Shown piece by piece: positions 8,421-60,097 of a stretch of 64,000 nt of DNA. The DNA comes from an uncultured Muribaculum sp. (GTDB taxonomy: Bacteria > Bacteroidota > Bacteroidia > Bacteroidales > Muribaculaceae): contig CAZWWS010000001.1 of the NCBI GenBank assembly GCA_964637445.1, forward strand, positions 29,004 through 93,003, in the 5' to 3' direction. A program made the translations under genes and the position numbers. Position 1 is the first letter of the stretch, and every line of letters starts with the position of its first letter. The notes beneath the pieces are model-generated. The model was not told where the DNA came from. It ran no database searches and was given only the letters and a program-made list of their open reading frames with translations.

Positions 8421-8454
8421 AAGCCACTTCGTGAGAAGCGGCTTTGTTGTTTTT
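8421..8454 (+). terminator. intrinsic terminator-like hairpin + T tract in the leader
   Basis: The hairpin is AAGCCACTTC-gtga-GAAGCGGCTT (one mismatch) followed by TGTTGTTTTT. A perfect GCCTTC-ttt-GAAGGC hairpin precedes it at 8397-8411. Confidence 0.5.
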
Positions 8455-8521
8455 ATAAAGAATGCTATATGCGTGACACTAATTGATTTTAGTGATATTT
8501 ACTGGTTCTATAAGGGTAAAA

Positions 8522-8539
8522 ATACCTAATTTTAGGTAT
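8522..8539. promoter_or_regulatory. perfect 8-2-8 palindrome, candidate operator of the TBDR operon
   Basis: The palindrome ATACCTAA-tt-TTAGGTAT is centred ~35 nt upstream of the -7 box at 8562-8569. Confidence 0.35.
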
Positions 8540-8561
8540 ATGAAATTATGGGAAGCTGATG

Positions 8562-8569
8562 TAATTTTG
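8562..8569 (+). promoter_or_regulatory. -7 box TAATTTTG for the TBDR operon
   Basis: A TAnnTTTG match lies 15 nt upstream of the GTG at 8584. Confidence 0.45.
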
Positions 8570-8583
8570 CAAAATCAAAGATT

Positions 8584-11352: not shown

Positions 11353-11372
11353 ATCAATTGATAATTAAACAA

Positions 11373-12575: not shown

Positions 12576-12579
12576 GCAA

Positions 12580-14109
12580 ATGAAAAGATGCTACGTGATT
12601 GTGTTGATTTTGATGGCTGTTGGAGTGTCTGTCTCTGACGCTGAGTCTCTTGATTCTGCATTAATCAATGCAATAGAAAGTCGAAAATCGCTAGTAAATG
12701 ATTTGGTGTCGTTTCCTTACGATGCTAATCCTGCAGCGATGTATTTTCGTTATGATTACTCTCTTACTCGGTTGGCTGTTGCCGGACGTTATAAGCATAG
12801 CAACACGTCGGAGGTCGTGCAAGAGGGGAGTGGATATGCTCTTGCTGAGATTGGTGTAGATACATATCTTAGGATGAAAACTGATGCTGTGGTTTGGGGT
12901 AATGCATCGTTTACGACAGGCACAATTCGCGATGTGAAGTGGTGTAGTCCTGCCGATTATGAGCGACTATTTCCATATGTAATCGGTGATTCAGTCGGAG
13001 GAAATAGAGCTGTGCGACAGTATGCTTTCGGCGGTGGTTATTCCCGACGAGCCGGGCGGTGGACGTGGGGTGCCGAGTTGGATTATATCGCTGCAATTTA
13101 TTACCGCAACAGTGATCCGCGAATAAAAGATGTTGTATCTGATTTGTCTATAAATCTGGGTGTGACCTATGCTTTAAATGATAAATATAATTTGGGCGTT
13201 GCTTCCGGATTGGCTATTTATAATCAAGATTGCGATGTGGAGTTTTATAATCCTATGAACGATATTTTTGAATATGCTATGACAGGGTTAGGAATGACCT
13301 ATACACGCTTTAATGGCAGTGATAATCCTGCATATAAAGGCATTGGTTACAACGTAATTATGCAGTGTATATCAAGTAATGGTTTGGGATTGAATGCCAC
13401 TATCGGTTATGATCATAATCAAATGCGTCAGATATTAAAAGACAACAATCACCTTACTTTGACTTCGCTTGCTTCTCATACTTTTAATGGGGTATTCGGA
13501 TATACGTCTAAAATTGGAAACGTATTGGTCGGCGCTGTCGCAGATGCTTCGTGGCAACGCCGTATCGGAACGGAGCATTTATATGGTTCGAGCGAAAGCA
13601 ATATTTATCCGGAAATTGGAACACGCGATCAGTATTATAATGATAAAGTAAATATTGTATTTACAATTCCTATTGAGCTACGTCCGACAAGTGATAGTAG
13701 AGTTGCTATATTGCCCGGATTGGGTTACTTATATAGTCACGAGCATTATATGCGACCAATTCGTGATTTGGAAATGCAACGTTATTATCCCGGAATAAAA
13801 ATAGATTATAGTTGTAAGACATCTTCAAAAACATTAATTGGAGCGGTTGTCGGTGGAGAATTTGGATTTTCGGAAGTGATGAATCGTCGATTGACCGGTC
13901 TTGATCCTCGCTCTTCTATCGGTCAAATGGTTAATTATAATTTTGATATGTTGACTGCTGATACCGCAAAGTTGCATCTGGGGCTGTCGCTTGATCAAAT
14001 AATAGGTCATAATACATCATTGTTTCTCGACTTGTCCTACGACTATCTTCATTATTCAACTTTTGGTTTGTCTCATTATGCTACAGCAAGCGTTGGTTTG
14101 AAATTTTGA
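12580..14109 (+). CDS. outer-membrane beta-barrel protein (DUF6850-like)
   Basis: It has a signal peptide MKRCYVIVLILMAVGVSVSDA, alternating hydrophobic beta-strand periodicity and a C-terminal ...ASVGLKF OMP-type end. Alternative ATG at 12565. Confidence 0.6.
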   Translation: MKRCYVIVLILMAVGVSVSDAESLDSALINAIESRKSLVNDLVSFPYDANPAAMYFRYDYSLTRLAVAGRYKHSNTSEVVQEGSGYALAEIGVDTYLRMKTDAVVWGNASFTTGTIRDVKWCSPADYERLFPYVIGDSVGGNRAVRQYAFGGGYSRRAGRWTWGAELDYIAAIYYRNSDPRIKDVVSDLSINLGVTYALNDKYNLGVASGLAIYNQDCDVEFYNPMNDIFEYAMTGLGMTYTRFNGSDNPAYKGIGYNVIMQCISSNGLGLNATIGYDHNQMRQILKDNNHLTLTSLASHTFNGVFGYTSKIGNVLVGAVADASWQRRIGTEHLYGSSESNIYPEIGTRDQYYNDKVNIVFTIPIELRPTSDSRVAILPGLGYLYSHEHYMRPIRDLEMQRYYPGIKIDYSCKTSSKTLIGAVVGGEFGFSEVMNRRLTGLDPRSSIGQMVNYNFDMLTADTAKLHLGLSLDQIIGHNTSLFLDLSYDYLHYSTFGLSHYATASVGLKF

Positions 14110-14133
14110 AAAAAATATTAACATTTATATGAT

Positions 14134-15033
14134 ATGACTATAGAAAATGAATCAGTAATTTCTGTCAAAAATCTCACTCAGCGATATGGTACCGGGAGGG
14201 TGATATATCAGAATCTGAGTTTTGAAGTGCCTCGCGGTCGTATTCTTGGATTGCTGGGCAAAAATGGTACAGGAAAGACTACCACAATCAATATATTGAT
14301 GGGGTATCTTCGTCCACAAAGTGGCGAATGTCGCATCTTTGGCGAAGATATTACTGCAATGTCTCCTGCAACACGTGAGCGGATTGCTTTATTGATAGAA
14401 GGTCATGTTCAGTATTCATTTATGACGATTGAACAAATAGAGCGTTTTTATGCAAAGTTTTATAAGAAATGGAATCGAGATGCTTACTATGAATTGATGC
14501 GTAAATTGCATGTATCGCCTCGACAGAAAATATCTACGATGTCGTGTGGGCAGCGTTCACAAGTCGCATTGGGGCTTATCTTGGCTCAGAATGCCGATTT
14601 GCTTGTACTGGATGATTTTTCGTTGGGATTAGACCCCGGCTATCGTCGTCTATTCATTGAATATTTGCAAGAATTTGCAAAAGCGGAAGAAAAGACGGTT
14701 TTTATGACTTCTCATATCATCCAGGATATGGAGCGTCTGATTGACGATTGCATAATGCTTGATTATGGAAAAATTCTTACTCAAATGCCGGTAACGCAGT
14801 TGATGAGAGAATTTGGACGATATACTTATATTGCCTCAGAACAATCTACGTTGCCTCAAGCCGATGGTCTCATTAATCCGAGTCGAATTAAAACGGATCA
14901 TGAGGTTTATTCTTTTAAGGGAGCTGACTATGTAGAGGCTCAATTACGAAATCAAGGTATTGAGTATTCCGATTTTAAGCGTACTGATATGTCGTTGGAA
15001 GATGCTTTCATCGGACTTACCGGAAAATATTAA
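14134..15033 (+). CDS. ABC transporter ATP-binding protein (ABC-2/exporter type)
   Basis: It has Walker A GKNGTGKTT, an atypical signature MSCGQRSQ, Walker B LLVLDD, H-loop TSH and a ~80-aa C-terminal accessory domain. Confidence 0.92.
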   Translation: MTIENESVISVKNLTQRYGTGRVIYQNLSFEVPRGRILGLLGKNGTGKTTTINILMGYLRPQSGECRIFGEDITAMSPATRERIALLIEGHVQYSFMTIEQIERFYAKFYKKWNRDAYYELMRKLHVSPRQKISTMSCGQRSQVALGLILAQNADLLVLDDFSLGLDPGYRRLFIEYLQEFAKAEEKTVFMTSHIIQDMERLIDDCIMLDYGKILTQMPVTQLMREFGRYTYIASEQSTLPQADGLINPSRIKTDHEVYSFKGADYVEAQLRNQGIEYSDFKRTDMSLEDAFIGLTGKY

Positions 15034-15716
15034 TGATAGAGAATATGACGAAAGCAATATTTTATAAAGAATGGTTGAAGACACACCGAGTATTTTGGGT
15101 GGCATTTATTGTGTCTTTATGTTTCTCGCTCTATGCCGTAGTGAGTATGAACAGGGTTGCAACATTGAAAGGTTGTGATCATATATGGCTTATTATGCTG
15201 CTGAAAGACAATACTTTTATCGATGTAATAAAGATGGTGCCGTTGGTGGTTGGAATTGCATTGGGCGTTGCTCAGATGGCTCCCGAAATGTCGCAGAAAA
15301 GGTTGAAGTTGACACTCCATCTGCCATATCCGCAGATGCGTTTGGTGGCTATGATGTTGTTGGTCGGTATCACCGAACTATTTGTGATTTATATCGTCCA
15401 ATTGTTGACTATAGCTATCTATGATATGCAAATTCTTGCTTCGACTTTGGTCGGGCGTGTGGTACTTACATCATTGCCATGGTACATTAGTGGAATTAAT
15501 GTTTATATGATTACTACTGCAATTTGCCTTGAAGGAACTTGGCGCCAACGTGTCTTGTTGGGGTTGCTCGGGGTAGGAGTTGTCTCATTCTATTATATGC
15601 AACCGGCTCCGGAAGCCTATAATTCGATACTTTGGCTATTAGCTGTTATTGCGTTAGCATCATCGTTATTGGCGTTTCGTTCGGTAAATCGGTTTAAGGA
15701 GGGCCGTCAAGATTAA
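15033..15716 (+). CDS. ABC-2-type membrane permease
   Basis: The 227-aa protein has ~6 TM segments. Its ATG overlaps the ATPase stop (TAATG). Confidence 0.7.
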   Translation: MIENMTKAIFYKEWLKTHRVFWVAFIVSLCFSLYAVVSMNRVATLKGCDHIWLIMLLKDNTFIDVIKMVPLVVGIALGVAQMAPEMSQKRLKLTLHLPYPQMRLVAMMLLVGITELFVIYIVQLLTIAIYDMQILASTLVGRVVLTSLPWYISGINVYMITTAICLEGTWRQRVLLGLLGVGVVSFYYMQPAPEAYNSILWLLAVIALASSLLAFRSVNRFKEGRQD

Positions 15717-15719
15717 AAA

Positions 15720-16949
15720 ATGAAAACAATCTCGCGAGTATTTATTGTCGCATTGTCTATCGCTGTTCTCAGTTGGTTTCTTCCGTGGTTATATTCGTTT
15801 ATGTTGCCTGATGGTGGAAATGAACCATATTTGGCATATTCTCCGATTGCCGACAGATGGATCGTTTCAGAGACCAACGATGATAAACAGACAGAGATAT
15901 ATGACCTTGCTGCCGATGGCATTTCGAAAGGCAATATTTATACAAAGAATCAAAGGGACTCGTTGCTGCCTCAGATGTTTTATACTCAGTTGCTCGCTCG
16001 CGAACAACTTGATGATACGATTTGTGGTATAGAGGTATCTCCACGAGTTTTCAAAACCACTTCATTTGTCTTTCAATCATCTCCAAGAGATATTAATAAA
16101 GTTTTGGCTGAAGCTTATCCGATAATGGAGTCGCTTCCGGTCAGAATTGAATTGGAAGATCCTACCGATGTTATGCTTATTGATAGTGGCGTAAAAATAG
16201 TAGATATGACTACCAATGAGGAGAAGCCTAAAAGTAGCGCAAGGTTTACAAAGATATTTGCTGATCGTGGTTTTGTATATCCGATGACTGATTTTAGTGC
16301 TAATATCACAGCTCGAAAAGCCTACGATGAGGGTTATTTGATGGTCGATGCCGAAGGTGCTGTTTATCATGTTAAGCAACAGGCCGGACGACCTTATATG
16401 AAGCGTATCGTTTTACCCGAAGGTGTAAAAGCAAAAAAGGTGTTTGTCATGGAGAATGTCGACCATCGCAATCTTGGTTTTATAATTGATACCGATAATC
16501 ATTTATATGTTTTAGCTGCAGGTTCTTATGACTTGACATTGTTGCCTGTTGATTTGTATAATCCACAAGCCGATAGGATTGTCGTGATGGGTAATGTGTT
16601 TAATTGGACTATTCGGATAACTAATGATAATGGCACTACGTGGTATGCAATTAATAATGCCGATTATCGTTTATTAGGTAAGTACTCTTATTCTTATGAC
16701 GAATCGTTGTTAGCTAAAATCGAAGGGTATATATTCCCATATAAACTATCCTTTACGTCTATGTCTGATTCACTCGCATATCCGCGTATTGAATCTGTCT
16801 CATGGTTGGCATTGGTTCTTAATTTGATATTAGCTGTTGTTATATTTGTAGTGATGCGGCGTCAACGTCGTAAGGCTCTTATTTCATCTGTAACTACAAT
16901 TGTATTTGGACTCTTCTCGTTTATACCAGTTATATTATTAAAAGATTAA
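15720..16949 (+). CDS. membrane protein, DUF4857-like (1 N-terminal + 2 C-terminal TM around a ~330-aa soluble domain)
   Basis: The 409-aa gene starts 3 nt after the permease stop. The TM segments are VFIVALSIAVLSWFLPWLY and, at the C-terminus, WLALVLNLILAVVIFVV / TIVFGLFSFIPVILL. The family name is from memory. Confidence 0.55.
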   Translation: MKTISRVFIVALSIAVLSWFLPWLYSFMLPDGGNEPYLAYSPIADRWIVSETNDDKQTEIYDLAADGISKGNIYTKNQRDSLLPQMFYTQLLAREQLDDTICGIEVSPRVFKTTSFVFQSSPRDINKVLAEAYPIMESLPVRIELEDPTDVMLIDSGVKIVDMTTNEEKPKSSARFTKIFADRGFVYPMTDFSANITARKAYDEGYLMVDAEGAVYHVKQQAGRPYMKRIVLPEGVKAKKVFVMENVDHRNLGFIIDTDNHLYVLAAGSYDLTLLPVDLYNPQADRIVVMGNVFNWTIRITNDNGTTWYAINNADYRLLGKYSYSYDESLLAKIEGYIFPYKLSFTSMSDSLAYPRIESVSWLALVLNLILAVVIFVVMRRQRRKALISSVTTIVFGLFSFIPVILLKD

Positions 16950-33655: not shown

Positions 33656-35302
33656 TTAGGCGAGTGAACTGATGGTCATGATACGCTCTTCAAAGTCATC
33701 GCGATAGAGTGATTGATTTTTGATACGCGACCGATAGGTGTAGATAGTCGACACTGAGCAGCGGAGGAAGTTGGCTATCTTCGTGCAATCATTGATGCCA
33801 AGACGTACCAAGGCATACATACGAAGCTCGGTGTTGAGCTTCTCGGTAGGTTTGGGTATTATGCGCTTCTCTTCGGTAAACATACTATTGACCGACTCTA
33901 CAAACGTAGGGAATATGCTTAAGAATGATTCATCGAAGTTACGATAAAATTCGGTGTATGAGTCATCGATAAATTGTTTTGATTTTAGCGTTCGCGTCAC
34001 CTCATCAATCTTACCGGTCATTGCTTTGCGGTTGAGCATCTTGCGGTAGGAGTCCATCTCGGAAATGTAGGTTGAGCACAGTTCGATGAATCGACCGATA
34101 TATTCCTCTTTGATGCAATTTGATTCGCGAAGCGATGTGCACATCTCCTGTTGCTGACGATTGACCGTGAGCAACTCCTCATTAAGCTTGTTGAGTTCGG
34201 CGTTTATCTCTTTCATTTTGTCGTGTGCGCGCGACACTCGTTTCATTTGTCGGAAAATGAGATATATCGCAACTACAAGAAAAACCGATAGAATGCTGAT
34301 TACAAATAGATAAGTCTTTACTTTGCGATGCTGTATGTCTTGAATCTCTTGGTGGGCTTCGTCGATCATAGGGAGCATACGTGTGGATTGCATATTGCGC
34401 ATTCTTCCGTTGAAGAATGTTGCGTCGGCAAGACTTTTCTTTACATATCTGTTCGCACGAGCCAAGTCTCCTGATTCATACAGCATTTCGGCTATTTGTC
34501 GCAGGGCGGTGTTCTCTTTAGTGACGCTTTTGATGTCGGCAATTGCGCTTCTAATGAGCCAAGCCATCCGTTCATTAGTGTTGTTCTCTAACTCGAATGC
34601 GTAAGATAACGTGGAGCACACTACGGCATATTCGCGCGAATTGTCCGGAATGCTGTCGGCATAGTTTTGAAGTAGAATTTTCGCCTTTGATAGTTGCCCT
34701 TGTTGTATAAACCCTTGTGTCGTAGTAATCAATTGGTTGAATGTGCTTGGCTGTAGGAGAGCCATAGACGAATCACGATACACTTTCACCTTGTTGAGGT
34801 ATTGTGGAGTGTACTCATCATCGTGAGAATACTCTGACAGATAGAGATACGTGTTTTCGATGGTTTTATAGTATTCGGTCAGCTGCTCCTTCGTTAATGT
34901 GGAGCGGTCGATAGCTCTGATTTGGACAATGCTCTCGGTGAATAATCCGGATCGAGATAGAATACGCACTTTTTTTATTTGTGCATAGTTAATCCAATCT
35001 TGTCTTTTTGCCTGTCGGCCGAGAGTAAGGCTCAAATTGATGTAATAGCGAGCCGAATCGCATATATACGATTCGTATTCTGTGTACAGACGTCGATAGA
35101 TTCTATATCGCTCATCGTCTGCAAGGCTTGATTTACTCAATTCATTCTTGATAATGTCAATATGTAATCTCTTTTCTTTTTCATACTCATCGCTATTGGC
35201 TATTGTCGCATCAAGCTCTTTAAGTAGTGAATCGCATGTTGTAGCTGCTTCGATTGACGTAACGGCTGCGATGAAAAATATGAGAGATAAAATTCTGTTC
35301 AT
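33656..35302 (-). CDS. membrane-anchored TPR / helix-turn-helix regulator (DUF6377-like), paralog 2
   Basis: The 548-aa protein has the same architecture as 6550-8130. Its C-terminus NTELRMYALVRLGINDCTKIANFLRCSVSTIYTYRSRIKNQ aligns with paralog 1. Confidence 0.7.
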   Translation of the reverse strand: MNRILSLIFFIAAVTSIEAATTCDSLLKELDATIANSDEYEKEKRLHIDIIKNELSKSSLADDERYRIYRRLYTEYESYICDSARYYINLSLTLGRQAKRQDWINYAQIKKVRILSRSGLFTESIVQIRAIDRSTLTKEQLTEYYKTIENTYLYLSEYSHDDEYTPQYLNKVKVYRDSSMALLQPSTFNQLITTTQGFIQQGQLSKAKILLQNYADSIPDNSREYAVVCSTLSYAFELENNTNERMAWLIRSAIADIKSVTKENTALRQIAEMLYESGDLARANRYVKKSLADATFFNGRMRNMQSTRMLPMIDEAHQEIQDIQHRKVKTYLFVISILSVFLVVAIYLIFRQMKRVSRAHDKMKEINAELNKLNEELLTVNRQQQEMCTSLRESNCIKEEYIGRFIELCSTYISEMDSYRKMLNRKAMTGKIDEVTRTLKSKQFIDDSYTEFYRNFDESFLSIFPTFVESVNSMFTEEKRIIPKPTEKLNTELRMYALVRLGINDCTKIANFLRCSVSTIYTYRSRIKNQSLYRDDFEERIMTISSLA

Positions 35303-35327: not shown

Positions 35328-35335
35328 CAAAGTTA
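35328..35335 (-). promoter_or_regulatory. -7 box TAACTTTG (minus strand) for paralog 2
   Basis: A TAnnTTTG match lies 26 nt upstream of the ATG at 35302. Confidence 0.4.
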
Positions 35336-35360: not shown

Positions 35361-35394
35361 AAAAAAGTTCGGGAAGCTACGATAGCCTCCCGAA
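35361..35394 (-). terminator. intrinsic terminator after the 1299-aa gene
   Basis: On the minus strand TTCGGGAGGCTA-tcg-TAGCTTCCCGAA is followed by CTTTTTTATTT. Confidence 0.65.
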
Positions 35395-35416
35395 CCGGAA
35401 AAACAGTAGGGTTAGA

Positions 35417-38400
35417 TTAGCGGATGATTTTGATTGTGCTATTTTGTGCTTTTAAGATATAAACCCCACTGAGGATATTGCTTAAATTCACGCAATTTTC
35501 ACCTTTAAGTATCAATTGACCATTGATATTATATACAGAAATTTCGCCATCAGATTTTGCGACATTCCCAACAATGGAAATCGAGCAGTTGTCAATCTCG
35601 ACGTTTGATATTTCGCTGGAAATTTCTGTCACACCATTTTCCTTGTCAATAAGGAAATAGTAATCGCGCATTTCGCTAATGGTGTAGTCGGCAAGTTGTT
35701 CGCCATTATTCCAATTGTTGAATATCAAATTATAGCTTCCCGATGTGGCATTTAACGTGAATACTTTATATGTATTACCTTCAATCTCGGTAGTCCCTTG
35801 TACGGCTTGTCCGGGCCATGCACCGAAAAGTTCGCTCGTGCCCCATGCGTATAGTCCTAAAGAAGCCCAACCGGTATTATCGATAACATAGATATAGTGT
35901 TCCGAATCGGGAATTTCAGGAAGTGAAGCTGATATGCTGAAATTATCGATAGCGAGAGCCATTGCTGCATTTGCAGCATCTCCGCTTGCGACTGTGATAT
36001 TCCATGCAAGATAGAGGTCGCATCCTGCTTGAAGATTGGTGTCAAGAACATCGCTTACACTGCGCGTTTCACCTGGGACATCCGTATAGCCTTCAGTGGC
36101 ATCATCTTTTTCAAAGTATGTGTAGAATTTGTCCCCGGCTGATGTGAAGTTGCGTCCGTCGATTGAATAATAAAGTTGAACAGCAAAGCCCGCCGCATTA
36201 GCACCTTTGCGATATTTTTCTATGTCGTAGGAAATAATGAGATTTTCAAGGTTAGTTTTCCCATCATTGAATAGATGAGCATAAACATTTACGCATCGAG
36301 TACCATTATCTACACCTGTTGAGATGCCTCCGATGGCACGGTCGCTATCATCTGTCGATCCAAAATTCCAAAGACCATTTTTAGCGTTGCTTGGTAGGTC
36401 GACACCACCACTATATGTAGTATTGGATAAAGCTGTTGGATATGTTCCAACAATGCGAGGTGCGCTTGTTTGTTTATCAATACGCCATGCCTCAGGAAGA
36501 GTGGCATCTGCATTCGAGCCAATGGCATTAAAGTTCTCTTCGGCGGTGAGTACATCCTCGTTGAGTTTGATTGCCGGATATACTATTACTTCAGTCTCAG
36601 CTTCTGCTACAACAATGGTTGCCGTAGATGTAAAATTGTCGGTTGAGGCTTTGAGTGTGTACTCTCCAAGAGTTTTGTCGGAAGTGTAGATGAGTTCTTC
36701 GTTGAAATTTCCGCCGCCACTTAATGTGAATTCCACAGGAGTTTCACTTTCTATCGGCATACCGAATTGGTCGTAGATGACATTCGAGAATCGGATGATA
36801 CCGGCGTTATGGTCTACGACGTTTTTGAAGTTCGATAGTGCGAGTGCCGCATATCGACGCATTGAGGCTGCATCAACTTCGGGTACATCAGATATTGTAT
36901 GAGTAATGTTTGTGGCATTTTCACCATAGATAAGCGAGTACTCCATGCAAGCTGCCAAATATGTGGCCTTTGGGGTTGGGTGTCGGTCATCGCTGTAGAG
37001 GGTTTGGGTAGATTCCGAACCTTCGGCATCGTAAATGGCTTGGTAGGCCATTGCTACAGGGCATATTGTTACACCAAGATCACGAGCTACGTCAAGATAG
37101 TTGTCATGGAATTTTTGATTATAATCAGTGAAATTACCCCAATCGCCACTATAAGCCCAGTTCATTGGTAGAATAATTATGGCATTCGGATTAGGACAAT
37201 ATTCGCGAATATAGTCAACCCATTGTTTTACATTGGCACGGAATGTTTCAATGTTTGTACGTGGAAGTGCGCTTTGTTCCTGAAGGATAATGTGGCTCCA
37301 CGCGTCAGTGCGAACAAGCATTTTTGCAGTAGGCGTACCATCTGCTCCGAGTCCATCGCCTTCGTCATAGTGGGTGGACAATGGTTTGCCAAGCATGGTG
37401 TGCTTAGTCCAATGAGCGTCTTTACCCATGGCAGATGCTATTTCATTAAATACAGCTGCCTGGTCGTTATAATGAATTAGACTGTTGTTGAGTGAAAGAA
37501 CTTTGACTGATTCAGGCATAGTCGGAACCAAGACTACATTTTGTGGCTGAAGGCTCATTTCTACTGCGTATGATCCGACCGCTTCCATTGTATATTCACC
37601 GGTAGAAACATTGAATGTTACATCGTATGTTCCGGCTGGTGTGGAAACTTTTCCGGTACTACCTTTTTCAAGTACGCCCGATGTGGCTGGTTCTATCGCA
37701 TCGTTATTGTTAGCAGCACCCCATACACCACTCATGCCGAGACGTTGATATAGACGCCATTGGCAATTGCCCGAAGTGCCGGCGGACATTGTGACACGTC
37801 CGGCAAAAACGTCTGCCGTTTCAGTCAATTTTAATTCACCGGAGGTATTCATGTAGTTCCACTCATTATTGTCTCCAATAATATAAACGGAAGTCAGATT
37901 AGCTGAGTCATCATCACTTTCAAGCAACAACGTGGCTTCTCCATCGTTGATTGACAATACTATTCGAGAACATTCATAAGTGTTACCGCCACACGAAATA
38001 TTGCCGTCTGTACCGGCTACAAGCGTGTATGGAGTATCCATCATGATTGAAGAACCGTTAGTGCCATAATTGCATGACGAACTCCAATTGGCATCTGCTA
38101 CTTTGAAAGTCCCATTAATGGTTTTGTCATATAGCACGTATGTGCCATCTCCTTCATTTGAAAATTCCCAATCAGAATATGCTTCCCAACTATTGACTTC
38201 GCCTCGCAGATATATACCCGATGATACGAATGCAGGTCGATTTGGGTCAACCCAACCGGTATAAGTTGATGGGTCGGAAATTTCGCTTACTTCATCTGCG
38301 GTGGCGCAAAGATAATAATCCTTCCCACCGGAAATAGCGAAATCGGTTAATTGATTTCCGCCTCCGTTATCATTGATTTGTAAAGTGTAGTTCCCCTGAC

Positions 38401-39316
38401 CTGAATACTCGAATGCTTTATATGTTACTCCATTTAGAGTTGTCGAAATGTTTGAAGTCGCTCCGGGGAACGTACCGAACAATTCGGCATCGCCACTTGC
38501 GTAAAGAGCCAAATTATCCCATCCGGTTACATCTTCGATATAGATATAGTTGGTATTGTCATTCGTGTATTCAATATCGATGGTAATATTGTCGATAGCA
38601 AGTCCCATTGCTTTATTGGGAGAAGAACCTGACGCAACGGAGATATTCCACGCAACATATAACTCTGACTCAGAAGCGACGTCAAGTAAAAATGTCTTAT
38701 TAGCAACGTTTACGGTTTCAATTGGGACGATTTCTGCTCCTAAAGTTTCGTTGTCGGGTGAGAAGAGTGTGTAAAAATCATCTCCGGCGTTGGTCCAATT
38801 GGTACCATCGATTGAATAGTATACTTGTACAGCAAAGCCTGCTGAGTTATCGCCTTTACGATATTTTTCAATGTCGTAGTTTAGCGTGATTTTAGAAATG
38901 GATTTTTCAGCTGCATTATAAATCTTTGAAATTAGATTTACGCATCTCGTGCCATTCGATACTGTGGTCGATAGTCCTCCAATTGCACGATCAGATGGAG
39001 TAGAACTTGAACCGAAATTCCAAGTCCCATTCGTAGCATTACTTGCAAGGCTGACGCCTCCGGCATACATTAAGTCTTGTGTGGCATTGGAAAAACTACC
39101 AATTGTGCGAGGGGCTGTCAACTGGCGTTCTACATACCAGCCATCGGGCATTGTTAAAGTCCCGGACTGAGTGGTTTCGTCCCACATTGAGTCGAAGTTT
39201 TGCTCTACTTGGGTTGTTTCAACATCAACGTTGATTGCATTTTGTGCAGTCGTTGGTAAAAATAAACCTAAGCAGCTCATTACGACAAAATTTCGTAGTA
39301 AATTTCTTTTGCGCAT
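35417..39316 (-). CDS. T9SS-secreted multidomain protein: DUF4886/SGNH-like esterase core with starch-binding-type (CBM25/26-like) modules
   Basis: The 1299-aa protein has a signal peptide and the order [unassigned ~210-aa module + CBM26-like], 2 beta-sandwich modules (GTFKVADANW...), a DUF4886-like core, an Ig-like domain, [second copy of module + CBM26-like] and a T9SS CTD. Confidence 0.85.
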   Translation of the reverse strand: MRKRNLLRNFVVMSCLGLFLPTTAQNAINVDVETTQVEQNFDSMWDETTQSGTLTMPDGWYVERQLTAPRTIGSFSNATQDLMYAGGVSLASNATNGTWNFGSSSTPSDRAIGGLSTTVSNGTRCVNLISKIYNAAEKSISKITLNYDIEKYRKGDNSAGFAVQVYYSIDGTNWTNAGDDFYTLFSPDNETLGAEIVPIETVNVANKTFLLDVASESELYVAWNISVASGSSPNKAMGLAIDNITIDIEYTNDNTNYIYIEDVTGWDNLALYASGDAELFGTFPGATSNISTTLNGVTYKAFEYSGQGNYTLQINDNGGGNQLTDFAISGGKDYYLCATADEVSEISDPSTYTGWVDPNRPAFVSSGIYLRGEVNSWEAYSDWEFSNEGDGTYVLYDKTINGTFKVADANWSSSCNYGTNGSSIMMDTPYTLVAGTDGNISCGGNTYECSRIVLSINDGEATLLLESDDDSANLTSVYIIGDNNEWNYMNTSGELKLTETADVFAGRVTMSAGTSGNCQWRLYQRLGMSGVWGAANNNDAIEPATSGVLEKGSTGKVSTPAGTYDVTFNVSTGEYTMEAVGSYAVEMSLQPQNVVLVPTMPESVKVLSLNNSLIHYNDQAAVFNEIASAMGKDAHWTKHTMLGKPLSTHYDEGDGLGADGTPTAKMLVRTDAWSHIILQEQSALPRTNIETFRANVKQWVDYIREYCPNPNAIIILPMNWAYSGDWGNFTDYNQKFHDNYLDVARDLGVTICPVAMAYQAIYDAEGSESTQTLYSDDRHPTPKATYLAACMEYSLIYGENATNITHTISDVPEVDAASMRRYAALALSNFKNVVDHNAGIIRFSNVIYDQFGMPIESETPVEFTLSGGGNFNEELIYTSDKTLGEYTLKASTDNFTSTATIVVAEAETEVIVYPAIKLNEDVLTAEENFNAIGSNADATLPEAWRIDKQTSAPRIVGTYPTALSNTTYSGGVDLPSNAKNGLWNFGSTDDSDRAIGGISTGVDNGTRCVNVYAHLFNDGKTNLENLIISYDIEKYRKGANAAGFAVQLYYSIDGRNFTSAGDKFYTYFEKDDATEGYTDVPGETRSVSDVLDTNLQAGCDLYLAWNITVASGDAANAAMALAIDNFSISASLPEIPDSEHYIYVIDNTGWASLGLYAWGTSELFGAWPGQAVQGTTEIEGNTYKVFTLNATSGSYNLIFNNWNNGEQLADYTISEMRDYYFLIDKENGVTEISSEISNVEIDNCSISIVGNVAKSDGEISVYNINGQLILKGENCVNLSNILSGVYILKAQNSTIKIIR
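35420..35614 (-). other. T9SS C-terminal sorting domain
   Basis: ...GEISVYNINGQLILKGENCVNLSNILSGVYILKAQNSTIKIIR matches the Por-secretion-tail pattern. Confidence 0.8.
35621..36544 (-). repeat. intragenic duplication, copy 2 (aa ~925-1232)
   Basis: EAWRIDKQTSAPRIVGTY...WNFGSTDDSDRAIGGISTGVDNGTRCVN...YDIEKYRKGANAAGFAVQLYYSIDG...LAIDNFSI + YIYVIDNTGWASLGLYAWG...GAWPG...LIFNN aligns with copy 1. Confidence 0.8.
36902..37510 (-). other. DUF4886 / SGNH-hydrolase-like domain
   Basis: The motifs are VKVLSLNNSL..., WSHIILQEQS, IILPMNWAY, ICPVAMAYQ and LYSDDRHPTPKATYLAACMEYSLIYGE (a Ser...Asp-x-x-His pattern). Confidence 0.65.
38282..39211 (-). repeat. intragenic duplication, copy 1 (aa ~36-345)
   Basis: DGWYVERQLTAPRTIGSF...WNFGSSSTPSDRAIGGLSTTVSNGTRCVN...YDIEKYRKGDNSAGFAVQVYYSIDG...LAIDNITI + YIYIEDVTGWDNLALYASG... 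Confidence 0.8.
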
Positions 39317-39365: not shown

Positions 39366-39381
39366 TAACTTTGCAAAGTTA
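39366..39381. promoter_or_regulatory. perfect 16-bp palindrome made of two back-to-back -7 boxes
   Basis: TAACTTTGCAAAGTTA reads TAACTTTG on both strands. The minus-strand box lies 58 nt upstream of the 1299-aa gene ATG. Confidence 0.45.
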
Positions 39382-42907: not shown

Positions 42908-45366
42908 ATGGCAGAGTCTTATGCTGAGGTCTTACTACCTCTTCCGTTATATTCTACATTCACATACCACATACCCAATGAATTGTTATATAAACTAAAG
43001 GTCGGGTATCGGGTAATCGTACCTTTTGGACGAAAAAAATTCTATACAGGTATTGTTGCAGCTATTTCTACGGTGGCTCCGGATGGTTATGAGGTTAAGG
43101 ACATTGCGATGATTTTGGAAAACTATCCCATAGTTAAACACCCTCAACTCAAATTCTGGGATTGGATTTCCGAATACTATTTGTGTTCACCCGGGGAGGT
43201 GTATCGAGCTGCTATGCCGGCAGGATTGAAAGTTGAAAGTGAAACATTTGTGGAACTTAATAGCGATTATGAGGAAAGTGAGGATTCCCGATTGTCAGAA
43301 AGGGAAGTGGTGATATGTCAACTGCTTGACCATGAGGGAAAGATGTCGCTTGTCGATATTGAAAAGAAAACTGAATTCCGAAATATTGGGGCTATTGTTG
43401 CTCGGCTGATTGAAAAAAGGCTGTAATTATATCGGAAAAATTAGTGGAGCGCTATCGTTCAAAAAAAGAAGTATATGTGCGATTGATCGCTCAGAATAAT
43501 GAAACATTACATGATGCATTTGATAAGCTAAAGGGAGCCAAAAAACAGGAAATGATGCTTTTGGCCCTGATTGAAATGTCAAGAGGCAAAGATGGCATAA
43601 GTAAAGAGGTGGCTCGGCGCGAATTGATTGAGCGCACAGGACTTTCGACTGCGATTCTCTCCGCTATGGCACAAAAGGGTATAGTCGAAATATTCAAAAA
43701 AGAGATAAATCGATTCAAATACAATGGCTTAGTGGCTGGAACGCTACCGGTTTTAAGTGTGCCGCAACGTGATGCGTTAGATGGAGTGCATCGAGCCTTT
43801 ATTGATAAGAGTATCACACTATTGCATGGCATTACTTCAAGTGGTAAGACCGAGATTTATATTCACTTGATTTCCTATGTAATGAATCGAGGTGATCAAG
43901 CATTGTTTCTCGTCCCGGAAATAGCGTTGACTACTCAGTTGACTCGACGATTACAACGAGTGTTTGGCGACAACGTTTTGATATATCATTCTAAATTCTC
44001 AGATAATGAAAGAGTTGATATTTGGAAACGTCTGCTCGAATCGGGGCAACCATGTGTTGTGTTAGGAGCGCGTTCTGCGATATTCCTGCCATTTACTCGT
44101 TTAGGTATCGTTATAGTCGACGAAGAACATGAACAAAGTTATAAGCAGTTTGATCCTGCTCCGAGATATAATGCTCGTGATGCTGCGATGGTGCTTGCCT
44201 CGATGCATGGGGCTAAAACTCTCCTCGGTAGTGCAACACCTTCAGTCGAGACGTATTATAAAGCTATATCGGGTAGATATGGATTAGTATCGCTCGATAA
44301 GCGATATGAAGGCGCAAATCTACCGGCGATAGAGGTGATAGATATGAGTGTAGCTCGCAAACGATATCGAGTGAAAGGTACATTTGCCGAACGAACAATG
44401 TTTTTGGCTCATAATGCGTTGGAGAAAGGAGAACAAGTCATATTTTTTCACAATCGACGCGGATATGCTCCTATGGCTCGATGCAAGATGTGCGGATGGA
44501 TCCCAAAGTGTGAGCATTGCGATGTGTCGCTCACTTATCATCGCTACCATGACGAATTGGTGTGTCATTATTGCGGTGCTACATATAAGTCATTCAGTGT
44601 TTGTCCTGCTTGTAAAGAACCCGGAGTGGAAAAATTGGGTTATGGGACAGAGCGAGTAGAGGACGAGGTGGCAAATCTGTTCCCTGATGCCAAAATATCT
44701 CGAATGGATCTTGATACAACTCGCAATAAGGACGGCTATGAAGAAATTATTGAAAATTTCTCACAGCGCAAATCTCAAATTCTTGTCGGTACTCAGATGG
44801 TGACGAAAGGATTGGACTTTGATGGTGTGAGTGTAGTAGGAGTATTGAATGCTGATACTATAATTAATTATCCCGATTTTCGAGCTACGGAACGCGCATT
44901 TAATATGCTTGAACAGGTATCGGGGCGAGCCGGGCGTCGTAATACCGAAGGGGTAGTAGCTGTGCAAACCTACCAACCGACTCATCCCATTATTGAGCAT
45001 TTGCAAAAACATGATTATAAGGGCTTTTATCAAATGGAAATAGCTGAACGTGAGCGTTATTTATATCCTCCTTTCACTCGACTTATTTATATTTATCTAA
45101 AACATCGTGACGATGATGTAGTGTGTGAGATGGCTGCTATATATGGAAACAAACTGCGAGAGTTGTTTGGTAATCGTGTGTTTGGCCCCGAGGAACCTGC
45201 TGTTTCGCGAGTTCAATCGCTATATATTCGCAAAATAATGCTCAAAATAGAAGTAACCGCTTCGATGAAAAAAGTGAAAACAATATTGCGCGATTTATAT
45301 GAGCGTATGCACGAAAATCCACGCATGAAAGGTATTGTAATTTATTATGATGTAGACCCAATGTAA
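42908..45366 (+). pseudogene. priA: primosomal protein N' (PriA), reading frame broken by a 1-nt deletion in an A-run (or a sequencing error)
   Basis: ORF 42908-43426 is the PriA N-terminal domain. ORF 43444-45366 is the helicase core (GITSSGKTE, DEEH), Cys-rich zinc region (CxxC x4) and C-terminal domain. The downstream frame is already open from 43414 (KKAVIISEKLVERY...). One extra A in the A6 run at 43413-43418 would fuse the frames. Confidence 0.85.
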
Positions 45367-56212: not shown

Positions 56213-59200
56213 TTAGAGAATAACTTTTGTGCGATTTACGATGTAGAATCCACGGTTGAGATCGTCGATTACATTGCGACCTGCCGATACTTCTTGTTGT
56301 ATCATACGACCATCGGCCGATACGATAGTTACGATAGCATCTTCTTCGGCATCGATATAGAGTACTCCGTCTATAGCGTAGATGTTGAGTGATTCATCGC
56401 CATTGCCTACTACGTCGGTGATGCCTGAAAGTGCAGTCTTACCGATGCGAGCCAATGAATAAGTGAGTACGTCTTCATCTTCTTTTTCTTGACTTGACGA
56501 AGGATCCATTGAGTAGTTATTGGTTACATTGTCGAAGAATACAGGGTCGTATGGAGTACCGCCCACAGGGCTTGAACCATATATATCGAGATATTGAACA
56601 CCGATACCTGTGTTGGTGATATGGCTTTCTGTAATACCGAGGAGCGACAACGGAATTTTGAATTCATAGAATGTGTGAGCCGACGCGTCTACTTCGCCAC
56701 TCAAATCAGTAAACCCATTGTTGGTTTCCAATACAGATGCATCATAATTGAAGCTGTCTTGTCCATAAATGTTAGAGATACATGACGCCAAACCATCAGC
56801 ATAGCCGTATGTTACGGTGCTTGTCTTGCAGTATGCTGCATCGTAGCTTGCATGTCCATCGGCGGTAGGAATGAAGAATCCGGGAGTACCAACACCTGGT
56901 TTGGTAGAGCCAATCCATACGGCATCTACGCCATTGTTGAACTTAGCACCGGGAGTACCTTCGTCGTTCCAAATAGCCCCGGTTCCGTTGATATAACCAT
57001 CAAATGATTTGTCAGGGTCAAGGTCGAAAGCGATCATCAAGCGACCATCCATGTTGTAAGGCTTGGATTCGCCGGGCTGCTTGCCTTCGCCATAGAGATC
57101 CCATACGGTGTAAACGAATTGCACACCAAGATAGAGATTTTCGCTATCGTATGCAGCATAGATGGCATAAGAGTCAATAATAGGACGCTCGTGGTTGCCC
57201 TTCATCGCTTGCGATACGTCGCGAGCTACACCTTGCGCGATGAGTTCTGCATCGCTCCAGTTGCTGAGCGCATTTGTGGCGTTTTGGTTGTTGAATGACA
57301 TATTGATGGTCTTTCTTGTTCCAACTTGGCCATTCGGATTGGTCTTGTAATAGTCAGTGTTGAGGCTATTACCGGTCGGGGTCGGAGTAGGAGTTGATTC
57401 GTCAGAACGGGTAAATGTAGCTTCTGCAGTTGTGCTGCCGTATGCATTGGTTGCAGAGATGGTGAGAGTGCCTGTTTGTCCATCGTTGAGGTAAGAACTT
57501 ACGGCAATTGTGTTTGACCCATTTGCCAATGTAACGGCTGTGCCATTGAAATCAGCAGTGATAGAAGTCGGTTCGCCGGCGATTGTCACAGTGATATTTG
57601 AAGTGCCCTTAACTGTGCCACCATTAGGTGAAATGGTTACTGTAGGAGCAACTTCTGTGTTGTCTTGATACTCAGAGTGAGAGCCATCCGCTTTGTATAT
57701 GTGACCGGTTACCCAAGCCAAATCATCGGTCTGTGTTGACCCATTGTTAAAGATGACGTTAGCCGGTTCTGTTGTAGAAGTGTATGAATAAATGTTATTG
57801 CCAAGAGCGGTCATTGCAACACCGGGCCATGCGCCATTTTGGTCTGACTCTCCTGTAGTCCAAGCATAGCAATATACAGTAGACCAATTGCTGCCGGAAT
57901 TGTCAAAGTAAACAGTATATCCGGAAACGGGGTCGGGATCGGGGTTCACGGGGGTATCGCCATTGCTGAACACAACTTTAGTGCTTGTAGCCCCGTTGTC
58001 GTTCATGATGTATGAACCGCTGTAAGTAAGGTCGCCTGTTTGAGTAGAACCATTTGTGTTGAACACAATACCGGTTGTTCCGCTTGCCACTTTTGCCACT
58101 TTGTATGTATTGCCATCTGAGCCTTTTGCCGATACAAATGCCACACCGGGCCAAGTTGACGCTGAAGCACCACCCCAATAGTGAACGTGAGTGTGGTTAC
58201 CACTGTATGCGATGTTGTAGTCACCGGTGATAGTAACGCCATCCGTAACTACATTATCATTTCCGGTATTATCATCAGTATCCTCTGAAGAACCGGCAGA
58301 TGAAAGGGTAACGGTCATTGTTGACAAGTTGGCAACAACTTTGTAGGTGCCGGCAGGAGCAAGCCATGAATACGCCGCCGATGCATTAACATTAGCAGCA
58401 AATTTTGTTATAGAAGCCGAAGTAGAGATTGTAGCATTATTCGATGCAGCACCGTAACGGTCGCTGGCATTAACTGCATCCCAGTCGGAACCTTGAACAG
58501 TCACAAAAGAGAAGAATGAGCCATCAGCATCGCTTGCTTTTGTCAAGTTAACGCTGTTCCAAGTGTAAACACCGCTTGATACGTTGTCGGCAGCGATTGA
58601 AGTAGAAGTACCCCAGCTGTTAACCGTACCGATGAGGTAGAGTTGAGAGGGATAATTTCCGGTATTGCCGGAATTTCCGTTATCATCTCCGGTATTGTCA
58701 TCAATTTCGGGAGCCTCGCCGTCGATAACAAGAACGGCAATTCCTGATGAGCCTACATTACCCGATATAGTAGAAGCGGTCACCGTGAATGTGCCACCGG
58801 AAACTTGGTCGATATAAGTGCCGGCGGGACAGTAGCCACCACCGTTTGCGATAGAAACGCTGCCTGAACCGCTACCTTTAACGATAGTCGCACCAACGCC
58901 TTTACGAGTCACGCTGACCACGCCGTTTGACGAAGTGAAATAGTCGGCAGCGCCCACTGCTTTGTTGCGAAGTTTATTGACAGCGGCGATATGATTTGAC
59001 TTAAAGTTGGTAGAGCCTTTCACACCCACTTTGATAGCGTCCTTGGATGTAGCGGAAGGACGTGAGAAGTAGAGCGAAGAAGCGCCGTTGCGGCAAGCGA
59101 TGATGGCCCATGCGCGGTCGATAACGGCTTGTGAAACGTGGGTAGAAGCCTGCCATTCATTTGAATAGTCATCGTGGCTCTCAGCCCAATACACCACTTT

Positions 59201-60031
59201 GCTGTCGGCGATAGTACTTGCAGCCCAGCCGGCATAGCCTGAGGGCACGCCACCACCGTTAACCGAATTACGAACACCGCTTGAATATCCGTTGTCGGTC
59301 ACCGACATATAAGTTGTGTATTCTTTCATTACGGCGTTACCATCGCCACCGGGGCTGTCGAGGATTTCGCCATAGTGCCACATTCCCGACACCGAAGTAA
59401 CGGTCGACCAGAAGTTACAACCTTCTGAAGGCAGACCGATATGTTTAGCGGCGTCCCAACGAATACCGTCGACACCGCAGGCTTTAAGTTCTTCTACATA
59501 TGCTTTAGCGCGTGCCTGAACTTCTGAATCTTCAGAGTTAGCATCGCCATAGTCGCCAAGCTGTCCGTGAGTGATAGAGTAACGGTTGCTATAGTCAATA
59601 CCACCGTTATAACGCAAACGACCATTTGAATTCCACCATGAATCGCGGTGAGACGACGAACCGTTTACGTGGTTGGCCACAACGTCAACAATCACTTTGA
59701 TACCGCGCTCGTGAGCAGCCGCACAAAGGCTTGTGAGCGACGTTTTATTACCTATGCCATTGGCTACGAGTTTGAAGTCGTAGGGCAAATAGCAATAGTA
59801 CCATTCTGCACCTGAGTTTGCACTTCCCTGCAATGGGGATAACTGAACTGCGCCAAAACCTGCATTGGCGATGTTGTCGAGCTCTTCCTGTACTTGAGCA
59901 CACGACCAATCGAAACAGTGAAGGATATTGCCATCCTGGATATTGGCGGGCAAACCATAGTCGGCAGCATTCGCGCTGAAGACTACAGACAATAAGAGCA
60001 TACTAAGCCCTAAAAAAGAAAATTTTTTCAT
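56213..60031 (-). CDS. T9SS-secreted GH13 alpha-amylase with multiple starch-binding modules
   Basis: GH13 regions are I VDVVANH, II GIRWDAAKH, III YGEILD and IV YWAESHDD. Two CBM25/26-like modules follow (HVHYWGG..TWPGVAF...IVFNTNGSTQTGD; VYCYAWT...GAWPGVAM...VIFNNGSTQTDD), then an Ig-like domain, a ~280-aa C-terminal beta-rich domain and a T9SS CTD. The start is set at the ATG (MKKFSFLGL...); the track uses GTG 60040. Confidence 0.9.
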   Translation of the reverse strand: MKKFSFLGLSMLLLSVVFSANAADYGLPANIQDGNILHCFDWSCAQVQEELDNIANAGFGAVQLSPLQGSANSGAEWYYCYLPYDFKLVANGIGNKTSLTSLCAAAHERGIKVIVDVVANHVNGSSSHRDSWWNSNGRLRYNGGIDYSNRYSITHGQLGDYGDANSEDSEVQARAKAYVEELKACGVDGIRWDAAKHIGLPSEGCNFWSTVTSVSGMWHYGEILDSPGGDGNAVMKEYTTYMSVTDNGYSSGVRNSVNGGGVPSGYAGWAASTIADSKVVYWAESHDDYSNEWQASTHVSQAVIDRAWAIIACRNGASSLYFSRPSATSKDAIKVGVKGSTNFKSNHIAAVNKLRNKAVGAADYFTSSNGVVSVTRKGVGATIVKGSGSGSVSIANGGGYCPAGTYIDQVSGGTFTVTASTISGNVGSSGIAVLVIDGEAPEIDDNTGDDNGNSGNTGNYPSQLYLIGTVNSWGTSTSIAADNVSSGVYTWNSVNLTKASDADGSFFSFVTVQGSDWDAVNASDRYGAASNNATISTSASITKFAANVNASAAYSWLAPAGTYKVVANLSTMTVTLSSAGSSEDTDDNTGNDNVVTDGVTITGDYNIAYSGNHTHVHYWGGASASTWPGVAFVSAKGSDGNTYKVAKVASGTTGIVFNTNGSTQTGDLTYSGSYIMNDNGATSTKVVFSNGDTPVNPDPDPVSGYTVYFDNSGSNWSTVYCYAWTTGESDQNGAWPGVAMTALGNNIYSYTSTTEPANVIFNNGSTQTDDLAWVTGHIYKADGSHSEYQDNTEVAPTVTISPNGGTVKGTSNITVTIAGEPTSITADFNGTAVTLANGSNTIAVSSYLNDGQTGTLTISATNAYGSTTAEATFTRSDESTPTPTPTGNSLNTDYYKTNPNGQVGTRKTINMSFNNQNATNALSNWSDAELIAQGVARDVSQAMKGNHERPIIDSYAIYAAYDSENLYLGVQFVYTVWDLYGEGKQPGESKPYNMDGRLMIAFDLDPDKSFDGYINGTGAIWNDEGTPGAKFNNGVDAVWIGSTKPGVGTPGFFIPTADGHASYDAAYCKTSTVTYGYADGLASCISNIYGQDSFNYDASVLETNNGFTDLSGEVDASAHTFYEFKIPLSLLGITESHITNTGIGVQYLDIYGSSPVGGTPYDPVFFDNVTNNYSMDPSSSQEKEDEDVLTYSLARIGKTALSGITDVVGNGDESLNIYAIDGVLYIDAEEDAIVTIVSADGRMIQQEVSAGRNVIDDLNRGFYIVNRTKVIL
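56216..56455 (-). other. T9SS C-terminal sorting domain
   Basis: ...LNIYAIDGVLYIDAEEDAIVTIVSADGRMIQQEVSAGRNVIDDLNRGFYIVNRTKVIL. Confidence 0.75.
58721..59962 (-). other. GH13 catalytic domain
   Basis: It contains the four conserved GH13 regions with the Asp/Glu/Asp catalytic triad (RWD, GEI, HD). Confidence 0.85.
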
Positions 60032-60097
60032 GAAAAACACTATATATTAAATGGTTAAATTAGTTCCGGTTTTTAATCTCGATTTAGGTAAACAGCG

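Follow-up and report, generated by a model that had tools for sequence, protein, structure and literature searches.

What does a protein do that joins an SGNH-type domain to starch-type binding modules and a type IX secretion system (T9SS) sorting signal? The question is raised by a gene of an uncultured Muribaculum sp. (contig CAZWWS010000001.1 of assembly GCA_964637445.1), carried on the 64,000-nucleotide stretch of DNA that we analysed and that we call the window. An earlier note, made from the letters of the window, had placed an open reading frame (ORF) of 1299 aa at 35417-39316 and had read its product as a cell-surface, starch-targeted carbohydrate esterase or a starch-tethering scaffold. 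The coordinates of this ORF are exact, on the minus strand, and we lean slightly towards the first of these readings: the gene would encode an active, alpha-glucan-targeted surface esterase of the SGNH type in Muribaculaceae. We observed the architecture, the folds, the conservation of the catalytic residues and of the family, and the linkage to a regulator gene, each of which is set out below.

A search of 5.8 billion proteins returned at least 120 near-full-length orthologues, mostly of 1270-1314 aa and 59-94% identical to the protein; these figures rest on the 120 best matches listed. Because those matches are near-full-length at such identities, the ORF is, as judged from sequence, a real gene that is strongly conserved in gut Muribaculaceae. 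Orthologues with a name among the matches listed are called 'T9SS type A sorting domain-containing protein' or 'hypothetical protein', and almost all belong to Muribaculaceae. In a scan of a genome collection, the three closest loci came from two Muribaculaceae metagenome-assembled genomes and one labelled uncultured Barnesiella sp.; a sheep rectum was the origin of one of the three, and a fecal sample that of another.

We set the boundaries of the protein's parts by combining Pfam, NCBIfam, self-comparison and our own hidden Markov models (HMMs). From the N- to the C-terminus, the protein consists of a signal peptide, a domain that we call module A, a degenerate CBM26-like (carbohydrate-binding module family 26) domain, a pair of X25/SusF-like beta-sandwiches, the DUF4886 domain, a small module X, a second module A, a CBM26 and a T9SS C-terminal domain (CTD). 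Self-comparison also revealed a duplicated unit of about 320 aa, with one copy on each side of the protein's centre. Mean identity among orthologues was highest for X25-like module 1 (0.74), with 0.69 for the esterase domain and likewise for module A copy 2: purifying selection has kept these three parts the most conserved.

The DUF4886 domain and its block residues

The central domain had been assigned to DUF4886 from short motifs. We found that it matches PF16227 with 35.1 bits (E 9e-9) against a gathering threshold (GA) of 26.7, and that the motifs quoted are SGNH blocks (NNS612LI, ILQ679EQS and D776DRH779). Chance matches were all that came from searches of PDB sequences with single sequences or shallow profiles, whether the query was the whole protein, module A or the esterase domain. 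A deeper profile of the esterase domain, built from 42 homologues with identities down to 22%, reached 4S1P (E 2e-22) and 4I8I (BACUNI_01406; E 1e-16). These are the only solved relatives, both structural-genomics deposits of uncharacterised or hypothetical proteins; a structural survey describes 4I8I as an SGNH-fold protein with the blocks GNSFS, IGGCSL, QQASPL and D.YH (PMC10792757). Mapping against 4I8I placed block I at NNS612, block II at LG643K, block III at Q679EQS and block V at D776DRH779. S612 and D776/H779 align with the GNS and the D..H of both structures, and the Q-x-x-S of block III aligns as well. In contrast to these single-domain proteins, the DUF4886 domain studied here lies inside a 1299-aa T9SS cargo, with module X and module A behind it.

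We found N611, S612, G643, Q679, D776 and H779 to be invariant in all 42 homologues and in 13 orthologues. The catalytic Ser, Asp and His that an esterase would need are thus present, and because the block residues are invariant in both sets, the catalytic set appears intact, with two departures. Where the family usually has GNS, block I reads NNS, and the canonical Asn of block III (GxND) is missing. The Gln that stands in its place is invariant, as in the QQASPL of 4I8I, and in the alignments it is a trait of the family. As no DUF4886 protein of known activity is on record, our term 'esterase' refers to fold and residues, and we infer both the hydrolytic activity and its substrate. DUF4886 is listed among five SGNH families without known function in a 2022 review (PMC9487903), which was the only mention of DUF4886 or PF16227 found in our literature searches. 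Among PDB sequences, searches with the single sequence and two profiles revealed no similarity to a characterised carbohydrate esterase (CE), and matched uncharacterised proteins only. The genomic contexts of four single-domain esterase homologues (P0143, P0155, P0122 and P0121) were of the housekeeping kind and uninformative.

The departures in blocks I and III, together with the lack of any known DUF4886 activity, bring up the alternative of a non-catalytic starch adhesin or scaffold, which would serve chiefly to attach the cell to starch granules, like SusE/SusF or the Sas proteins of Ruminococcus bromii, and in which DUF4886 would have a structural or binding part. The number of starch-type modules (up to four per polypeptide) and the top conservation of X25-like module 1 fit this proposal as well. 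We nonetheless consider it quite unlikely: Ser612, Gly643, Gln679, Asp776 and His779 do not vary among the orthologues or among single-domain homologues with as little as 22% identity, and few parts of the protein are as well conserved as the esterase domain, which would be unexpected for a dead enzyme.

Starch-type modules, export and the proposed mechanism

Two modules had been taken for CBM25/26, and one of them holds. The C-terminal module scored 33.7 bits with PF16738 when scanned alone and 27.3 bits within the whole protein (GA 28.1). It keeps the motifs YAWG, AWPG and IFNN in 13 of 13 diverse orthologues, and the two CBM26 modules of a GH13 (glycoside hydrolase family 13) amylase encoded elsewhere in the window have the same motifs. 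Judged by CBM25/26 structures, the tryptophans of YAW and WPG would be residues of the binding site. The N-terminal module is homologous to the C-terminal one (residues 256-347 versus 1140-1233, 45% identity, E 3e-21 in self-comparison); scanned separately, it gave no match to the Pfam CBM26 model and no other usable Pfam match at E up to 10. All orthologues compared have lost both tryptophans of this copy (YAS in place of YAW, FPG in place of WPG); a loop is deleted in several of them, and conservation is the lowest of any globular module (mean identity 0.41 versus 0.63 for the C-terminal CBM26). From its sequence it is a decayed CBM26 homologue, and because it has no Pfam match, we count one of the two CBM26-like modules as CBM26.

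For the tandem beta-sandwiches, we modelled residues 350-590, both modules together, with AlphaFold2 (predicted local distance difference test score, pLDDT, 84.6) and compared the model with the PDB by Foldseek. Only three structures matched residues 365-579 at E < 0.01, all of them starch binders: 7RPY (R. bromii Sca5 X25-2; E 1.3e-6), 4FE9 (Bacteroides thetaiotaomicron SusF; E 1.6e-6) and 5X5S (the starch-binding domain of AmyP; E 5.5e-3). No other match fell below 0.03, and the next was a maltohexaose-forming amylase from Klebsiella. Sequence identity to 7RPY and 4FE9 is only 13-15%. X25 modules are beta-sandwiches of about 120 aa, and the tandem X25 of Sca5/Sas20 forms a two-lobed clamshell, lined by four tryptophans (W509/W555/W620/W661 in Sca5), that binds long malto-oligosaccharides, with sub-micromolar affinity in the case of maltoheptaose (PMC9112005). 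Six tryptophans are kept across the pair studied here (W377, W383, W411, W486, W520 and W532), with at least 90% conservation reported for the first three, and these residues may be equivalent to the binding-site tryptophans of Sca5. With one conserved CBM26 and a tandem pair whose PDB matches are all starch binders, the alpha-glucan targeting proposed earlier is well supported; the modules would accordingly be expected to bind starch.

The earlier note had also likened the two beta-sandwiches to the linker module of the GH13 amylase. Both modules exist, and the likeness comes down to one weak BLAST match to the amylase ORF (E 0.013, 27% identity over 212 aa); when close orthologues were used to build HMMs of the tandem modules, these failed to detect the amylase linker region. 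The amylase (56213-60040, minus strand) has two CBM26 modules and a C-terminal region of about 490 aa without a family match. NCBIfam lists no T9SS tail for it at E <=0.01; by eye, its last ~60 residues resemble a sorting domain. It thus resembles the 1299-aa protein in its CBM26 aromatic motifs and, weakly, in the tandem-pair region, and differs from it in having a GH13 catalytic domain and no module A, DUF4886 or module X.

Further parallels are offered by R. bromii Sas20/Sca5 X25-2 and B. thetaiotaomicron SusE/SusF, which are surface-displayed in starch-using gut bacteria (PMC9112005). As in these proteins, two tandem beta-sandwiches and surface display are predicted for the 1299-aa protein, whose host is likewise a gut bacterium that uses starch. 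Unlike them, it would be anchored by a T9SS CTD instead of a dockerin, a sortase signal or a lipid, and it carries DUF4886, whereas Sas20/Sca5 and SusE/SusF have no catalytic domain. In joining an SGNH fold to modules that target a polysaccharide, the protein is also like the SGNH esterases with appended CBMs of families CE2, CE3, CE6, CE12 and CE17 (reviewed in PMC9487903). It differs from these in that it has no sequence match to a characterised CE in the PDB and in that its binding modules are of the starch type. Our literature searches turned up no starch-directed carbohydrate esterase.

Both export signals that had been proposed stand. The signal peptide, which we read from the sequence rather than with a predictor, has a basic n-region, a hydrophobic core and a cleavage site between TTA and Q, and Gln directly follows the predicted site in most orthologues compared. 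The CTD scores 23.7 bits with TIGR04183 (NCBIfam cut-off 23), and 20.7 bits (E 5e-4) with PF18962, under the Pfam GA of 27. No component of the T9SS machinery was found among the scanned ORFs of the window. Display on the cell surface via T9SS is supported by these signals, and anchoring of the protein there would be expected.

The mechanism that we propose for an alpha-glucan-targeted esterase runs as follows. Sec would export the protein by means of its signal peptide, and T9SS would move it across the outer membrane by means of the type-A CTD, which, by analogy with other type-A cargo, would be removed as the protein is attached to lipopolysaccharide at the surface. Starch granules or long malto-oligosaccharide chains would be held there by the X25/SusF-like clamshell together with the C-terminal CBM26. 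DUF4886, with Ser612 as the nucleophile, Gly643 and Gln679 in the oxyanion hole, and Asp776/His779, would then cleave an ester-linked group from glucan-associated material. It might act on O-acyl groups of alpha-glucans or malto-oligosaccharides, including acetylated or butyrylated starches, on acyl lipids associated with the granule, or on esters in cell-wall polymers nearby. Both copies of module A would most likely be additional ligand-binding or substrate-presenting jelly-rolls that travel together with this esterase subfamily, and expression would probably be under the control of the neighbouring SusR-family regulator.

Several points weigh against this reading, in addition to the two block departures, the standing of DUF4886 among SGNH families without known function, and the distribution of the cassette and the regulators described below. 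The CTD barely reaches the NCBIfam cut-off. The TM-scores of the X25-like match are low (0.32-0.36), and the two domains are oriented differently. The Pfam model X25_BaPul_like (PF22058) matches beta-sandwich 2 only, with 14 bits against a GA of 27 (E 0.057), and module 1 has no usable Pfam match even at E up to 10. Furthermore, the natural substrate is not obvious, because native starch is not known to carry O-acyl groups.

Module A, module X and their cassette

A module of about 210 aa had been noticed twice in the protein and left unassigned. We found that this module, our module A, spans about 225 aa and that its two copies are 47% identical (residues 27-260 versus 915-1144, E 8e-68 in self-comparison). 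It has no match in Pfam, NCBIfam or PDB sequences. AlphaFold2, given an alignment of 41 sequences, returned a beta jelly-roll (pLDDT 96.3, predicted TM-score 0.93), for which Foldseek found remote neighbours only (query TM-score, TMq, 0.30-0.44; identity 9-15%; root-mean-square deviation 6-14 A; probability ~1.0). The nearest folds are the gingipain cleaved-adhesin domains K1-K3, Cry toxin domain III, MAM, CBM4, CBM6, CBM16 and a porphyran-binding CBM, with a best TMq of 0.44 at 15% identity. Like module A, gingipain K1-K3 are beta jelly-rolls, and they are likewise binding modules of T9SS cargo. Because no TMq exceeds 0.44 and no match exists at the sequence level, module A appears to lie outside the cleaved-adhesin, MAM and CBM jelly-roll families; the model points to a binding-module-like fold with no close relative.

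Module A is not a private oddity of this protein; it is a widespread domain without a family model. When 1.84 billion representatives were searched exhaustively with HMMER, at least 531 clusters matched at E <=0.001, of which 209 reached <=1e-30, in proteins of 146-3183 aa that usually carry the module just behind the N-terminus. In 51 module A proteins, the most frequent partners were DUF4886 (19 proteins) and a T9SS tail (14 proteins with Pfam, 21 with NCBIfam), next to scattered nucleases, F5/8C, fn3 and a PorU-like peptidase. The copy number varies: P0188 (1960 aa) has six tandem copies, P0197 and P0218 have three each, and P0008, an orthologue of 1710 aa from Muribaculaceae, carries one further copy at its N-terminus. 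That some proteins are made largely of module A repeats suggests that the module can act alone as a multivalent binding unit. In P0396 and related module A proteins, the end looks like a PEP-CTERM-type anchor (...TSTLLFGGGAASLVLGRWRRRR in P0396) and there is no T9SS tail; module A may thus extend beyond T9SS cargo or beyond Bacteroidota.

With our own HMMs, we mapped the best 150 module A representatives, 33 of which carry the esterase domain. A cassette recurs among them, in the order DUF4886, module X, module A, the last of these once or twice. Module X, which has no Pfam match even at E up to 10, stands behind the esterase domain in 25 of the 33. Starch-type modules (CBM26-like or X25-like) are present in only 11 and missing from the other 22, which counts against an alpha-glucan substrate. 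The evolutionary core is thus DUF4886 with module X and module A, older than the starch modules, which are an addition found in Muribaculaceae and a few further lineages. Because the cassette mostly occurs without them, starch binding looks like a localising add-on and not like proof of the substrate; and because 22 of the 33 representatives lack such modules, the specificity of the esterase may be unrelated to alpha-glucan.

One form of this idea, which we consider unlikely, is that the protein de-esterifies a non-starch glycan or other polymer, for example hemicellulose, acetylated or feruloylated, in the walls of cereal endosperm, and is parked on starch. Module A would then recognise the acylated polymer, while the starch modules would provide proximity to starchy food or would have changed their ligand. 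The greater age and wider spread of the cassette agree with it, as do a close paralogue in a GH30/GH3 locus (see below) and the occurrence of module A with nuclease, peptidase and F5/8C domains, as expected of a general binding module. A precedent is CBM48, a glycogen-type family that is appended to CE1 feruloyl esterases acting on arabinoxylan. The CBM26 of the 1299-aa protein, however, retains the aromatic signature of its family, the structures closest to the tandem pair all belong to proteins whose binding of alpha-glucan has been shown by experiment, and GH97 and GH13 genes lie near some orthologues (1.4 kb away for GH97 in locus L008, and 2.3 kb for a GH13-CBM26 gene in L012).

Gene neighbourhood and significance

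The neighbours of the gene in the window encode a CpsB-like phosphatase, PBP1a, PriA, an acetyl-CoA hydrolase and an enzyme of the radical-SAM tRNA-modification type (UPF0004, Radical_SAM, TRAM). The gene is not in a polysaccharide utilisation locus (PUL), and none of the six contexts examined has susC/susD beside the orthologue. Compared with a Sus-like regulon, then, a SusR-family regulator is adjacent as expected, but there is no PUL or susC/susD pair. With a promoter box in front and a terminator-like hairpin behind (Table 1), the gene looks monocistronic. We take the TAACTTTG box to be of the Bacteroidota -7 type (consensus TAnnTTTG). A sigma-70 promoter scan was discarded, as it is not meaningful for Bacteroidota, and the -7 boxes were read by eye. 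An identical 10-mer, CTAACTTTGC, which contains the -7 box, precedes both the esterase gene and the SusR-family gene.

The product of the latter matches PF19904 (E 1e-88) and the NCBIfam equivalog NF058541 (568 bits versus a cut-off of 480). A SusR-family gene adjoins the orthologue in four of six distinct contexts (the window, L010, L008/L009 and L012), in two gene orders, and we regard control of the esterase gene by this regulator as probable. The remaining points against an alpha-glucan substrate arise here: no SusR-family regulator adjoins the orthologue in the other two contexts (L006/L007 and L011), the regulators beside different orthologues share only 31-34% identity, and a SusR-family gene that passes NF058541 also flanks a GH30/DUF4886-paralogue/GH3 locus. 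We had considered the SusR neighbour as starch-specific evidence and dropped it, in view of the GH30/GH3 locus, a cluster with a TonB-dependent receptor in the window, and regulators whose likeness to one another does not exceed that of paralogues. For these reasons, the adjoining regulator ties the gene to glycan use in general and not to starch specifically.

In the cluster with the TonB-dependent receptor, a second SusR-like gene (window 6550-8130, plus strand; PF19904 E 3e-76; NF058541 408 bits, below 480) is followed by the receptor gene (8584-11352) and by genes for DUF4876, DUF6850, an ABC ATPase and DUF4857. The cluster as a whole (6550-16949, plus strand) is not a classical susC/susD PUL. 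The GH30/GH3 locus (L016 2413-11488, also L017) runs from a GH30 gene (1154 aa, DUF5121/DUF5125) through a DUF4886 paralogue and a GH3 gene to a SusR-family regulator, then to a DUF5121/leucine-rich-repeat protein and, in L017, also a TonB-dependent receptor. The paralogue has 377 aa and is 50% identical to the esterase domain of the 1299-aa protein. This locus is a second, non-starch glycan context for the esterase subfamily. Because so close a paralogue sits among glycoside hydrolases, the locus favours a glycan-linked ester as the substrate class of the family.

The same locus bears on a special case of the alpha-glucan esterase, a lipase or lysophospholipase for the acyl lipids of cereal starch granules, whose amylose-lipid complexes hinder amylases. 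SGNH enzymes include lysophospholipases, and cereal starches hold lysophospholipids and free fatty acids; a lipid substrate is attractive in that native starch is not known to carry natural O-acyl groups. The domain has a weak similarity to Lipase_GDSL_2 (20.1 bits, under the GA of 32.9; E 1e-3). We consider this case very unlikely: it has no direct evidence, the paralogue of the GH30/GH3 locus points instead to glycan-linked esters, and no lipid-related genes lie nearby.

Two further observations concern the surroundings of the gene. In the window, priA is split into a 172-aa ORF with the 3'-DNA-binding domain (42908-43426, plus strand) and a 640-aa ORF with the helicase part and a GTG start (43444-45366, plus strand), and the syntenic orthologous locus L010 has a single PriA of 842 aa; the split may be due to a frameshift or to an error in sequencing, or may mark a pseudogene. 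Near the orthologues, precomputed Pfam matches to Dockerin_1 occur at L006 1-1083, L011 14440-15375 and 19462-19870, and L012 14149-17088. The proteins that bear them include the GH13-CBM26 amylase of L012, and dockerin-type repeats are unexpected in starch enzymes of Bacteroidota.

Table 1. Features of the esterase gene, its product and its flanks, with positions in the window
Feature	Residues	Coordinates	Strand	Details	Basis
Complete ORF	1-1299	35417..39316	-	1299 aa plus stop codon	ORF call; at least 120 near-full-length homologues
Signal peptide	1-24	39245..39316	-	MRKRNLLRNFVVMSCLGLFLPTTA, then Q25	read from sequence
Module A copy 1	27-255	38552..39238	-	beta jelly-roll without a family model	self-comparison, AlphaFold2
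Degenerate CBM26-like module	256-347	38276..38551	-		homology to C-terminal CBM26
X25/SusF-like beta-sandwich 1	365-467	37916..38224	-	conserved W377, W383, W411	AlphaFold2 and Foldseek
X25/SusF-like beta-sandwich 2	476-579	37580..37891	-	conserved W486, W520, W532	AlphaFold2 and Foldseek
DUF4886/SGNH-type domain	604-830	36827..37507	-	blocks NNS612, LG643K, Q679EQS, D776DRH779	Pfam PF16227
Module X	845-915	36572..36784	-	small, probably Ig-like, after DUF4886	own HMM
Module A copy 2	915-1137	35906..36574	-		self-comparison, own HMM
CBM26	1140-1233	35618..35899	-	YAWG/AWPG/IFNN motifs	Pfam PF16738
T9SS type-A C-terminal sorting domain	1246-1299	35420..35581	-		TIGR04183, PF18962
-7 promoter box of the esterase gene		39374..39381	-	TAACTTTG, 58 nt upstream of ATG	read by eye
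Intrinsic-terminator-like hairpin		35366..35396	-	14-bp stem with 7 G-C pairs, then TTTTTATTTG; 21 nt past the stop	sequence scan
-7 box of the regulator gene		35328-35335	-	TAACTTTG	read by eye
SusR-family glycan-utilisation regulator		33656..35302	-	548 aa, directly downstream, same strand	PF19904, NF058541

The earlier note knew of no characterised combination of DUF4886, CBM26 and T9SS, and our literature searches (on Muribaculaceae starch and T9SS, CBM26 with SGNH, PF16227, and acylated-starch esterases) likewise found no description of the 1299-aa protein. What is new is the combination of modules, the use of an SGNH family without known activity, the targeting of an esterase by starch-type modules, and the co-evolving module A. 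The logic of an SGNH esterase with CBMs and the X25 tandems of SusE/SusF and the amylosome were already known, and the GH13 amylase, whose end resembles a sorting domain by eye, would be another T9SS cargo with CBM26 in the window. A more far-reaching claim, which we hold to be possible and rather doubtful, is that DUF4886 is the first of a new carbohydrate-esterase family, of which the member described here, displayed on the surface and dedicated to this task, de-esterifies starch-associated esters (those of acylated alpha-glucans or of granule lipids), and that module A is a new CBM-like family of ligand-binding jelly-rolls that has co-evolved with it.

Muribaculaceae are dominant starch-responsive gut bacteria (PMC8636109), and the protein touches an unexplored area, their starch machinery outside PULs. 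It joins an SGNH family without known activity to proven types of starch-binding module, and its architecture and conservation are solid enough to allow clear experiments on the function that we infer. For the acylated resistant starches of nutrition trials, the release of acetate or butyrate is ascribed to unnamed 'microbial esterases' (PMC6843365). Should the DUF4886 domain prove active, the protein would be a concrete candidate for such an enzyme and the founder of a new carbohydrate-esterase family. If the new-family claim is true, two 'dark' families would gain a function, and an enzyme of the gut that frees short-chain fatty acids from acylated starches would be identified. Module A, with its many clusters and its presence in many large secreted proteins, some of which have a T9SS tail, merits definition as a family whether or not the esterase is active.

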